Assembly: GCA_030019325.1 (NCBI GenBank)
Contig: JASEFB010000019.1
Location: 1-22,617, forward strand
DNA: 22,617 nucleotides
Direction of reading: 5' to 3'
Source of the DNA: an archaeon
GTDB lineage: Archaea > Halobacteriota > Syntropharchaeia > Alkanophagales > Methanospirareceae
Positions 19,038 through 22,617 of the stretch are shown here, piece by piece (position 1 is the first letter of the stretch; each line of letters starts with the position of its first letter). The position numbers were made by a program, and so were the translations under genes. The notes under the pieces were generated by a model. The model was not told where the DNA came from. It worked only from the letters and a program-made list of their open reading frames with translations, and searched no databases.

Positions 19038-19900
19038 GCGAAAAGAAAATCGCATACCATCCCGGGTGCCCATCAGCGACGACCGCGATGGAACAGGATA
19101 TGTCAACCAAAGCAGTGTTTGAAAAGCTGGGTATCGAACTCGAAGAGCTCGAGGATTGGAACTGCTGTGGCGCGTTAGAAGCCGAAGATCCAAAGTTAGT
19201 TATTGCGCTCAATGCGCGGAATCTCGCTCTTGCTGAGAAGAAAAGACAGGATATTGTCACACCGTGCAGTATCTGTTATTATAATTTAGCGAGGACTGAT
19301 AAAGCGTTAAGGGAAGATGAGAAGTTACGTGCGGAATTAAAGGAGATTGACGGTTCGCTTGACTATAAGGGAACAGTAAAGGCGAAACATATACTGGATG
19401 TCCTCGTAAACGATATTGGCTTGGCTGAATTGTCAGGTAAGATAGCAAAGAAAGTAAATCTGAAGGTTGCACCGTATTATGGTTGTTATTTAGGAAGACC
19501 GCCGGAAACCGCTTTTGATGACCCTGACGACCCTGTTTTGATGGACCAATTGATAGAGCTGATCGGGGCAGAAAATGTTCCGTTCAGTTACATGAAGACG
19601 AAGTGCTGTGGAGGACCTTTGATGATGACGAGAGCGGATATAGCATTTGAGATGGCGAGGAAGATACTGGAGTCGGCGAAGAAGGCTGGTGCAGACTGTA
19701 TTGCACTTGCCTGTCCACTGTGCGGCATGATGCTGGATGCGAAGCAGCCTGATGTAGAAGCGGCATTCAAGATCGAGATCGATATGCCGGTGATTTATAT
19801 AACCCAGTTGTTGGGTTTGGCGCTCGGAATAGAGCCGAAAAAACTCGGGTTTAACAAAAATATCATAGACACGAAGAAAATTCTTGAGAAGGTGATGTGA
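19034..19900 (+). CDS. hdrB: Heterodisulfide reductase subunit B (HdrB), two CCG domains
   Basis: 288 aa. The first CCG domain is KIAYHPGCPS...DWNCCGA...TPCSICY. The second is YYGCYLGRP...KTKCCGGP...LACPLCGMM. The start overlaps the hdrC stop (ATGA). Confidence 0.9.
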   Translation: MSEKKIAYHPGCPSATTAMEQDMSTKAVFEKLGIELEELEDWNCCGALEAEDPKLVIALNARNLALAEKKRQDIVTPCSICYYNLARTDKALREDEKLRAELKEIDGSLDYKGTVKAKHILDVLVNDIGLAELSGKIAKKVNLKVAPYYGCYLGRPPETAFDDPDDPVLMDQLIELIGAENVPFSYMKTKCCGGPLMMTRADIAFEMARKILESAKKAGADCIALACPLCGMMLDAKQPDVEAAFKIEIDMPVIYITQLLGLALGIEPKKLGFNKNIIDTKKILEKVM

Positions 19901-22617
19901 AAATGGGAATAGCGGTTATTGGGGGAGGCGTTGCTGGTATCACAGCAGCTCTTGACCTTGCAGATTCTGGGTATAAAGTTTATTTGATAGAGAAGAACGC
20001 GAAACTTGGTGGTAAGGTTGCGGAGCTTGCGGAATGTGAAACAGGTATAGCACCACGGATAGTTAAAATCGAAAACCATCCGAACATTGAACTGATGCTC
20101 TCGAGCGAGGTTGAAGGGTTATCAGGCTCCGCAGGTGATTTCAAGTTGAAGGTGTCAGGGAAGGAGATAGATGTGGAGAGCGTGGTGCTTGCACCGGGAT
20201 ATGATGTTTTTGATACCATAGCAAAGAGCTATGCGATCGGGCACCCAAATGTTGTTACCGCTTTGGAGTTTGAAGGCATGCTCCGGGCTTGTACTGCAAG
20301 TGAGACCGGAGAACTGTTACGACCTTCAGATGGAAAGCCAGTGAAAAGAATAGGATTCATCAAGTGTGTCGGGTCGAGGGGCAAGGAGAATGAAATTTGT
20401 TCGACGGCATGTTGCGCATACACGGCGAAAGAGGCATGGGAAGTGAAAGAGCGATTCCCGGAGATGGAGGTTTACATCTTCTACATGGACATACGCGTAT
20501 TTGGACGAGATGAGGAGCTGGTGGCGAAGTTAAAGGATAAATACGGTGTGAATTATATAAGGTCAAGAGTTCCGGAGGTGATACCTGGGGAAGGGACTCT
20601 AACAGTTAAGTTTGAGGATTTAAAGAAAGGCACGGTTGAACGGTTAGACCTTGATATGGTGGTTCTTGCGGTTGGTCTTCTCCCCTCAAAGACGATAGGA
20701 AGACTTGCAGAAATAATGGGAGTGAAAACTGATACCTATGGCTACATTGAGACGAGCCTAACGAAGCCACTGGAAACGAATGTCCCCGGTATATTAGCCT
20801 GTGGAACGGCAACCGCACCGATGAAAGTTAGGGAAAGTGTTGCGCAGGCGAGCGGTGCCGCATTAAAGGCTTCACAGTTTTCAGCAAGGACAGAGCTGAT
20901 TCCAGGGCAGGAGGAGAGGAAATTTATTGATGTGGCTGATAAGCCGCTGAAGATAGGCGTCTTCATTTGCGGTTGTGAAGGAGAAGTGGCGAATTCGGTG
21001 GATATACCTGTGGTGGCGGAGCGAGTGAAACAACTGAGAAATGTTGTCTCTGTGAATGGAGAGACAAACACAATGAAAGAGGCGATGGAAGCGATAGAGA
21101 GTGGAATAGTAGACCAGGGACTGAACAGGATTGTAGTTGCAGGATACTCGCCGCGAGCATATGAAGATCTCTTCAGGGATGCGTGTGCGAAGGCAGGCTT
21201 AAATCCTTATCTGCTTGAGATGGTGAACTTGAGGGAACAATGTGCGTGGGTGCACGGGAAGGAGGAGGCGACGAATGCCGCAGTTTACCAGATGACCATG
21301 GCGGTAGAGCGAGCACGGTATCTTGAAGAGATCCCGATTGAGAGGTATCCCGTGATACCGAAAGCACTTGTTATTGGTGGTGGTGTGGCAGGGATGAATG
21401 CAGCGCTTGGCATCGCAAATGCGGGATATGAGGTCTATTTAGTGGAGAAAGAACCGGAATTAGGTGGCGGTTTGAGGGAAACCACTGAGTTACAGAGTGG
21501 AGAGAAAGCTTCTGACGTTTTAAGAGAGTATGTTGATAAAATAGGCAGTAATGAGAAGATAAGAGTGTATACAGGTGCAACGGTAGAGGATGTTAGGGGA
21601 AGAGCTGGTTCGTTTAGAGCGCGGATGAAGGGGGAAGACGTAGATGAAGAGATAGACTTCGGAGCTGCGGTGCTCGCAACCGGTGCGAGGGAATTTGTAC
21701 CTGAAGGATGGTATGGATATGGACAGGATAAGAAGGTGGTAACGCAATCTGATTTTGAGAAGATGCTTGCGGGGGGGCATATGGATGCTACCACAATCGT
21801 TATGGTTCAAGATGGGATACCGGGCCATAGGTCAAAGTACAGCAGTATCCAAGTGGTGAGTAATGCATTAAAAGCGAAGGAGCTTAAACCCGATTTGAAT
21901 GTATTCGTGCTTTACCAAGAGATAAAAACGTACGGTAAGTGGGAAGTGTTATACAAAGAGGCGCGAGAAAAAGGCGTGATATTCCTCAGATACGATGAGT
22001 GGAGACCACCAGAATTTAAGGATGGAATTATATCGGTCCATGATGTTATATTCAACGATGAGATACAGATAAAGCCCGATTTGGTGGTGCTCAGTCCCGC
22101 AATGCTGCCTGCAGAAGAGAACGAGCAATTAAGCAAGATGTTCATGATTCCGCTTAAAAACGGGTTCTTCTTAGAGGAGCAGGAGCGACCAAAGCTGGTA
22201 TTAACGCCGGTTGATACGGTGAACGAAGGGGTTTTCATCTGTGGTTCTGCGGTTTATCCCGCAATGATAGATGATGCCATTGCAATGAGTAGTGCAGCAG
22301 CCTCGAGGGCATGCGTGTTGTTAGCAAAGAATTTCCTCGAGACGCCTGGTATCGTTTCCGTAGTTGACGAGGCTATATGTTCAGGGTGCGGTGTGTGTGT
22401 GGAATTATGCCCAGTTGAGGCGATAGAGCTGGTGGAGGAGCCGATATCTGCGGTTACTTTCGGTGTGATGACCGTGATAAGTGGTAAGAAGAGGATTGCG
22501 AGGGTCGTCGAGGGCTGTATAGGCTGCGGAAGTTGCGCTTCCTATTGCCCATCAGGAGCGATGTCGTTACAGAATTTCAAGGACCGACAGTTGTTTGCTC
22601 AGTTGGATTATGCGTAG
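19897..22617 (+). CDS. hdrA: Tandem HdrA-HdrA fusion flavo-iron-sulfur protein (compact QmoA-like HdrA module + N-domain/FAD/C-terminal-ferredoxin HdrA module)
   Basis: 906 aa, complete (the TAG is at the last three bases of the window). The start overlaps the hdrB stop. There are two GxGxxG folds ([12 protein letters not shown] at aa 7-18, [12 protein letters not shown] at aa 492-503). The HdrA Cys block occurs only in the first half ([22 protein letters not shown]). An HdrA N-domain-like segment is at aa ~352-470. The C-terminus has [12 protein letters not shown] and [12 protein letters not shown]. Confidence 0.85.
   Translation: [906 protein letters not shown]

Follow-up and report, generated by a model that had tools for sequence, protein, structure and literature searches.

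This study concerns a fused double hdrA gene at positions 19897 to 22617 of the plus strand in a 22,617-nucleotide archaeal contig (JASEFB010000019.1, assembly GCA_030019325.1), the whole of which is referred to here as the window. The gene encodes the HdrA4-type (type II) HdrA subunit of a methane-oxidising ANME-1 (anaerobic methanotrophic archaea; Methanophagales) archaeon, with two anciently diverged modules carried in one chain. Taken together, the observations are probably best explained by an HdrA4 chain with a catalytic module 1 and an arm-donating module 2, working in a 1:1:1:1:1 complex that has one active site and is linked to coenzyme F420. By analogy with known heterodisulfide reductase (Hdr) complexes, its function is likely that of a one-active-site, F420-linked heterodisulfide oxidoreductase. 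An initial annotation, made from the sequence alone, had proposed an obligate, asymmetric single-chain pseudo-heterodimer, and this reading is supported by the complementarity of the two halves (29% identical), by the compact chain predicted in structural modelling and by the single copy of each partner gene in the cassette. Both the fusion and its interpretation as a built-in heterodimer are already published under the names HdrA4 and type II HdrA, and the gene in the window is a further orthologue. The module order, a corrected ligand map and the stepwise erosion of the module 2 cofactor sites in the lineage of the window are the incremental content of the present work.

The encoded protein is 100% identical to NCBI MDI6885343.1 (904 amino acids (aa); product name 'MAG: FAD-dependent oxidoreductase [archaeon]'). 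As initially annotated, the open reading frame is uninterrupted: it has zero internal stops and ends with TAG at 22615-22617, giving 906 codons counted from the GTG at 19897 or 904 from the ATG at 19903. The codon overlapping the hdrB stop (TGA, 19898-19900), taken at first for an ATG, is the GTG at 19897; the first ATG lies at 19903, two bases past that stop, with GGTGA 8 nt upstream. This ATG is the start used in the NCBI entry and is the probable start of the gene. Residue numbers given below follow the 906-codon frame (GTG 19897 = codon 1). The entire protein matched the solved HdrA 5odc_A at E 4.6e-108, and the polypeptide contains two GxGxxG folds, each half alone also matching HdrA in the PDB, in accordance with the two HdrA-type modules of the initial annotation. 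Their low mutual identity marks the halves as old paralogues rather than products of a recent duplication. The protein fell far below the curated NCBIfam cut-offs for HdrA (NF041778, 464.8 versus 1400 bits; NF041891, 406.9 versus 1300; NF040770, 597.4 versus 1100).

A protein search identified 74 clusters of closely similar length (886-958 aa) and 46-93% identity from the NCBI, JGI, ENA and Logan assemblies. The source names, given for homologues of 46-90% identity, point to ANME-1 and its relatives and include Methanophagales, Ca. Methanospirareceae, Ca. Methanoxibalbensis and Ca. Syntropharchaeia. A few homologues are labelled otherwise, namely L008 (DATKWH010000033.1, 78%; 'Candidatus Bathyarchaeia') and P0067 (HUV01966.1, 61%; 'Desulfobacteria bacterium'), and these are probably mis-binned or mislabelled ANME-1 contigs. 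The frame is intact and the linker between the modules conserved in all 74 clusters, with the same frame in loci L001-L009, and the fusion is therefore real. That an error of sequencing or assembly joined two adjacent genes at the linker has a negligible chance of being correct. Split tandem versions (about 450 + 565 aa) do occur in other lineages (L051, L062, L078, L079) and tandem HdrA5/HdrA6 pairs are also present in ANME-1, but the uninterrupted frame of about 900 aa recurs in four independent data sources. A frameshift or stop in the linker, which would have returned two ordinary genes, was rejected on the same 74 independent clusters.

The features of the fused gene, all on the plus strand, are as follows.

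19903-20886 (aa 3-330): module 1, a thioredoxin-reductase-fold FAD core only (8rvv_A, E 1.4e-68; 6tjr_A, E 9e-44)
19921-19938: GxGxxG of module 1
20035-20037: Cys47, the lone cysteine at the site of the HdrA Cys194/Cys197 pair by alignment to solved HdrA (74/74 clusters)
20365-20415: cysteine block of module 1, C157, C168, C172 and C173 (each in 74/74 clusters)
20887-20946 (aa 331-350): linker between the modules, conserved
20947-21336 (aa 351-480): N-terminal-type domain (N-domain) of module 2, with C358, C360, C430 and C449 kept
21349-22326 (aa 485-810): thioredoxin-reductase-fold core of module 2, with neither inserted ferredoxin domain nor cysteine pair
21376-21393: GxGxxG of module 2
21790-21870: degenerate cluster block of module 2, with zero cysteines
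22354-22581: C-terminal 2x[4Fe-4S] ferredoxin domain (2x CxxCxxCxxxCP), with C828, C831, C834, C838, C874, C877, C880 and C884

Module 1 (aa 3-345 as searched) matched HdrA of M. marburgensis (8rvv_A) and aligned in two pieces covering only residues 155-246 and 301-569 of 8rvu_a, which means that it lacks the N-terminal domain as well as both ferredoxin domains (inserted and C-terminal). It matches the sHdrA protein 6tjr_A end to end, and a Foldseek comparison of the two gave a target-normalised TM-score of 0.89 (root-mean-square deviation, 2.0). The retained cysteine block and the three missing domains, all noticed in the initial annotation, were borne out by the alignment to solved HdrA. The four cysteines of this block are, on sequence grounds, the predicted ligands of the thioredoxin-reductase-domain [4Fe-4S] cluster HA4, which wires FAD to HdrC/HdrB (role of HA4 from PMC13580544). 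The equivalents of Glu356 and Lys409 in module 1 are E126 (74/74 clusters) and K178 (68/74, with Arg in 5). The site set of a flavin-based electron-bifurcating HdrA, comprising Glu356, Lys409 and the HA4 cysteines, is thus complete in module 1 only. Cys47, overlooked in the initial annotation, is an invariant cysteine with no counterpart in module 2; HMMER places it opposite the first cysteine of the CxxC pair (LDCSMC). This Cys194/Cys197 pair corresponds to Cys202/Cys205 in M. marburgensis, and its role has been described elsewhere (PMC9012536; PMC13580544; PMC13518236).

For module 2 (aa 346-906), the match to 5odc_A (E 1.3e-85) takes in residues 5-234 and 320-647. It accordingly possesses an N-domain, another dinucleotide fold with a second core, and the 2x[4Fe-4S] domain at its C-terminus; the inserted ferredoxin domain is missing. 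Both modules in fact skip HdrA residues of about 235-319, the inserted ferredoxin domain that carries HA5/HA6. The same alignment upheld the initial account of module 2 as having a second GxGxxG, a C-terminal pair of CxxCxxCxxxCP motifs, no cysteine at the cluster block and no inserted domain. The N-domain look-alike that had been recognized there is also present, but two of its cysteine positions are lost and not one: Cys46 and Cys71 (numbering of M. thermolithotrophicus HdrA), two of the four near-invariant N-domain cysteines, are replaced by M393 (T392 in the HMMER alignment) and Y417. Candidate ligands of the N-domain cluster (HA3) were taken from conservation and from later open-access structural papers. 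A further loss not picked up previously is that of Lys409, whose equivalent is S655 in both the HMMER and the MAFFT alignments. Since the module 2 core has no HA4, no lysine and no cysteine pair of its own, its flavin core is probably a scaffold only. In the linker DNA, a conserved QEER is encoded by GGAGGAGAGG (window 20910-20934), which precedes by 12 nt a GTG that is in frame (codon 346) and stands at the start of module 2; initiation there, to yield module 2 alone, has no other support.

Conservation across the 74 clusters is correspondingly asymmetric. C47, C157/C168/C172/C173 and E126 are present in all of them, as are all eight cysteines of the C-terminal ferredoxin domain, whereas the module 2 equivalents are lost or variable. 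The module 2 cluster-block cysteines are gone in 65/74 clusters, the window included, the nine that keep the block together with the lysine being deep members; a lysine at the Lys409 position of module 2 was found in only 10/74. Position 621 is A/E/G/R and position 655 S/D/T/K/N in the family. In the N-domain, C430 is conserved in 97% and C449 in 93%, position 449 being Val in four clusters and Gly in one, and nine clusters related to the window have lost Cys358, Cys360 or both. The erosion of the other N-domain cysteines can be followed across the family (P0001-P0084): deep members keep both 'NTCE' and 'GCSPR', a middle group keeps 'GCSPR' only, and the subclade of the window has M and Y/F at the Cys46 and Cys71 positions, with S/R where Cys358 or Cys360 are lost in close relatives. 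Within the group that has lost the module 2 cluster block, Cys46 went first and Cys71 afterwards, with Cys47 invariant throughout the family. This pattern of invariant module 1 and C-terminal cysteines against eroded module 2 sites indicates continued selection on module 1 and the input arm, and relaxed selection on the module 2 flavin pocket and the N-domain cluster. As far as sequence comparison can tell, the ANME-1 family of about 900 aa is a reduced derivative of the double HdrA; the absence of the inserted ferredoxin domain from this family was judged from length and from three aligned members.

The fused hdrA closes a five-gene cassette (window 16923-22617) whose other members, all on the plus strand, are the following.

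16923-17351: mvhD (MvhD4), a [2Fe-2S] adaptor (PF02662, E 9e-54; top PDB match ElpC, 8rvu_F, 8e-54)
17348-18409: FrhB/FdhB/ElpB-like F420-module protein (FrhB4) with a 2x[4Fe-4S] domain (PDB FdhB/ElpB chains)
18411-19037: hdrC (HdrC4; TIGR03290, E 1e-21)
19034-19900: hdrB (HdrB4), with two CCG domains (PF02754, E 4e-28; TIGR03288, E 1e-63, below cut-off)

For each fused HdrA, the cassette thus encodes a single copy of MvhD, of the FrhB-like protein, of HdrC and of HdrB. The top PDB matches of FrhB4 were the FdhB/ElpB subunits of Hdr complexes (9t1s_M, 5.6e-24; 8rvu_E, 7e-20; 7bkb_E, 2.6e-15), and MvhD4 keeps its His/acid pair as H...E. The five-gene order is kept around orthologues with 89%, 86%, 77% and 57% identity (all four relatives checked), and the same order was observed in L001 and L003-L007.

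In solved Hdr complexes fed by F420H2 or formate, the FAD', HA4' and cysteine pair of an HdrA protomer are served by its partner's arm (PMC13580544; PMC12350162). HA1/HA2 wire the electron donor to the [2Fe-2S] cluster and HA4' leads to HdrBC, while the single shuttle cluster HA3 hands the low-potential electron to HA5'/HA6' of the inserted ferredoxin domain (PMC13580544; PMC12350162; PMC13518236). Published legends differ on whether HA3 is N- or C-terminal (the legend that is the source for HA1/HA2 gives 'N terminus'); the reading adopted here is that HA3 is the single N-domain cluster and HA1/HA2 belong to the two-cluster C-terminal ferredoxin domain. The two modules of the fused chain would then fold onto each other like the two protomers of a canonical HdrA homodimer. 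Module 1 would be the 'primed' catalytic half: besides FAD and the Glu/Lys pair it has HA4 as the link to HdrC and HdrB, and Cys47 in the relay position of the cysteine pair. Module 2, with its N-domain and C-terminal 2x[4Fe-4S] domain, may act as the electron-input 'mobile arm' donor, onto which MvhD4 and the FrhB-like F420 module would dock. The arm of the solved structures, in serving the partner protomer, displays the same division of labour as that envisaged from module 2 to module 1, which supports this reading. Since FrhB4 is nearest to FdhB/ElpB and MvhD4 nearest to ElpC, F420 is the most likely electron-exchange partner of the arm. The predicted complex FrhB4-MvhD4-HdrA4-HdrC4-HdrB4 (1:1:1:1:1), with one active flavin and one HdrBC exit, would link the F420/F420H2 couple to that of the heterodisulfide of coenzymes M and B (CoM-S-S-CoB) with CoM-SH + CoB-SH, although both the F420 partner and the direction are inferred.

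Several observations weigh against this arrangement. Neither module has the inserted ferredoxin domain, so that the canonical low-potential exit is missing, and a plain F420-to-heterodisulfide enzyme cannot run oxidatively, as ANME-1 needs, without ferredoxin input. The FAD of module 2 may retain a function, its dinucleotide fold being intact. No double HdrA was found among the PDB structures searched. The absence of HA5/HA6 together with the damaged N-domain ligand set implies that, in the lineage of the window, either ferredoxin is served differently or there is no bifurcation.

The latter outcome, a non-bifurcating F420H2:heterodisulfide oxidoreductase whose low-potential branch has been lost in the derived lineage of the window, is conceivable but somewhat doubtful. 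It is consistent with the inserted ferredoxin domain being found nowhere in the family of about 900 aa, with the loss of two of the four N-domain cysteines that are near-invariant in double HdrAs, and with the substitutions at positions 358, 360 and 449 in the clusters noted above. However, C430 and C449, both highly conserved, could re-ligate a cluster together with C358 and C360, the N-domain fold is retained and well modelled, and ANME-1, being without HdrDE, needs a ferredoxin-consuming route (PMC9012536). A different arrangement, in which module 1 of one chain pairs with module 2 of another to give a dimer with two active sites, appears unlikely. [quoted passage not shown]

Two active flavins per chain, each supporting a bifurcation or confurcation reaction, have been suggested in general for type II HdrA (Lyu et al., 2025), and for the present protein this is very unlikely. 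The GxGxxG and FAD-fold glycines are indeed found in both modules, Lys409 and Glu356 occur in 75% of type II sequences (PMC12054007), and the cluster block and lysine are kept in module 2 of most double HdrAs of other lineages and of the nine deep family members. In the window and in most of its family, on the other hand, those cluster-block cysteines are gone, the lysine is rarely present (S655 here), position 621 is variable, the cysteine pair is missing from module 2, and the cassette supplies a single HdrBC pair. The single-chain complex with a catalytic module 1 and an arm-donating module 2 remains the explanation we favour.

The interest of the system lies in the fact that ANME-1 is without HdrDE (PMC9012536), because of which the route of CoM-SH/CoB-SH oxidation in ANME-1 methane oxidation is unsettled; the HdrA4 cassette is a leading, widely conserved candidate for this step. 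A hard-wired, asymmetric single-chain HdrA would also be a natural 'half-of-sites' bifurcating enzyme, useful for dissecting the roles of the protomers, an idea already published. It may further be proposed, tentatively and with the odds against it, that HdrA4 of the ANME-1 subclade in question has been whittled down to a one-flavin, one-exit enzyme without the canonical low-potential branch. If so, it would be either a non-bifurcating F420H2:heterodisulfide oxidoreductase or an enzyme passing its low-potential electron by an undescribed route, possibly from the arm clusters directly to ferredoxin, or else to the Mvh-HdrA module whose genes lie just upstream.

That upstream block (10576-16705) comprises hycI (minus strand), mvhD, mvhG, mvhA and a canonical hdrA (14570-16705), the last encoding 711 aa with every domain and cysteine motif and having no hdrBC of its own. 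The 89%-identical relative (L004/L005) has the block too; in L001, L003 and L006 its place is taken by a radical-SAM gene, by gatB or by a pair resembling HdrA5/HdrA6. Mvh-type hydrogenases have been reported as confined to a small ANME-1 subclade (Chadwick et al., 2022, PMC9012536). Elsewhere in the window lies a DmsABC-type set (2182-8736), made up of genes for a molybdopterin oxidoreductase of 936 aa, for a 4Fe-4S subunit and for a membrane anchor of the NrfD/DmsC kind. After it come two TatC genes in divergent orientation and, on the minus strand, a B12-binding radical-SAM gene (8825-10579). The minus strand also encodes, at 145-1452, a membrane protein resembling thioredoxin/DsbD.

The survey of genomes proposed in the initial annotation revealed that such fusions are widespread in Archaea and Bacteria, the cassette itself being conserved in ANME-1 relatives. 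Of the 80 loci recovered by scanning GTDB species genomes, 77 have, by a BLAST-based test of fusion, a single frame with a flavin core upstream of the N-domain; these come from many archaeal and bacterial phyla and range from about 950 to about 1,660 aa. The 29 double HdrAs aligned from outside the family of about 900 aa have the same module order as the window protein. In every aligned double HdrA (P0108, L010-L087) the first half has the cysteine pair and no N-domain, and the N-domain is in the second half. Near-invariant N-domain positions across double HdrAs are Cys11, Cys13, Cys46 and Cys71. Almost all of the 29 carry in module 1 the CxxC pair, the cluster block and either the inserted ferredoxin domain or a GltD/NfnB-like insertion of about 550 aa. 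In bacterial double HdrAs of 1,460-1,667 aa an insertion of about 540-580 aa with about 20 cysteines stands at the position of the inserted ferredoxin domain of module 1 (L021, L022, L030, L037, L047, L056, L060, L065, L067, L068, L083, L085 and L087). The insertion of L083 (Desulfocarbo indianensis) consists of a GltD/NfnB-like Fer4_20 + Pyr_redox_2 unit, which results in a triple-flavin chain that we take to be, probably, the 'HdrL' type known from sulfate reducers. Split pairs in adjacent frames, consisting of a core-only protein of about 435-455 aa and an N-domain-bearing one of about 561-567 aa, occur at L051, L062, L078 and L079, and at L062 and L078 they stand beside a fused copy in the same locus.

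Among known systems, QmoA and QmoB of sulfate reducers likewise pair a short with a long HdrA-like flavoprotein, but these are separate subunits that are membrane-linked via QmoC and serve adenosine 5'-phosphosulfate (APS) reductase. In the window, a single chain is encoded as part of an hdrCB/mvhD/frhB cassette and aprAB is absent; none of the Qmo models in NCBIfam matched either module at E<=1e-15, and the HdrC of the window matched the N-terminus of the qmoC model at E 1.8e-21 (77 bits versus a 300-bit cut-off). The sHdrA of Hyphomicrobium denitrificans (6TJR) is, like module 1, a minimal form of HdrA that comprises a flavin core and a single cluster, although it is a free-standing homodimer in a sulfur-oxidation system. 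The HdrA of the Moorella thermoacetica MetFV-HdrABC-MvhD complex is bacterial, and its partners are MetFV and NADH. The tandem pairs HdrA5/HdrA6 and HdrA12/HdrA13 of ANME-1 (Chadwick et al., 2022) and the pairs of about 450 + 565 aa elsewhere show the same split into a core-only short and an N-domain-bearing long protein; all of these are nonetheless separate genes and polypeptides, unlike the fusion in the window. Tandem HdrA pairs adjoin the HdrA4 cassette in L001 and L006.

Canonical HdrA (5ODC, 7BKB and 8RVU; the HdrABC-MvhAGD, Fdh-Hdr and Elp-Hdr complexes) has the same folds and ligand motifs, and its complexes likewise use an FdhB/ElpB-type F420 module and an MvhD-type adaptor as input arm. 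It is built, however, from two identical 650-aa chains with six clusters each and two active sites. The window protein is one 904-aa chain with three to four predicted clusters; it has a single HdrBC exit and lacks the inserted ferredoxin domain.

Lyu et al. (2025, PMC12054007) described 'type II HdrA', 176 sequences in classes based on A3 and A4, and explained its origin by the joining of two type I classes. A colinear two-module chain is also found in class A3 (Methanoperedens, ANME-2, Methanolobus and Methanosarcina), and the window protein shares 43% identity over 91% of its length with P0108 (Methanoperedens, 1017 aa). A3 and the bacterial double HdrAs, as here, have the cysteine pair site in module 1 only and the N-domain and C-terminal ferredoxin domain in module 2 only. 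A3 keeps the module 1 inserted ferredoxin domain, both cysteines of the pair, all N-domain cysteines and the module 2 cluster block and lysine, and adjoins FdhB and an FdhA-like protein, often with HdrD; the window protein has lost all of these traits.

The closest counterpart is HdrA4, the fused double HdrA among the ANME HdrA paralogues grouped by Chadwick et al. (2022, PLoS Biol, PMC9012536), whose S10 Fig data have columns for HdrA4, HdrB4, HdrC4, FrhB4 and MvhD4, with these five genes on consecutive locus tags in nearly all ANME-1 genomes and Ca. Syntrophoarchaeum, and whose supplementary data include transcript values for the cluster genes. No match was found between the accessions retrieved here and the supplements of PMC9012536 and PMC12054007, in which most published entries are locus tags, and membership of HdrA4 hence rests on architecture, synteny and lineage. 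[quoted passage not shown] The text of Chadwick et al. puts the N-domain in the N-terminal half, in contrast to the second half in the sequences surveyed here. In fused architecture, gene order and lineage, and in the complementarity that underlies the argument for HdrA4 being its 'own heterodimeric partner', the two are the same, and nothing essential differs between them.

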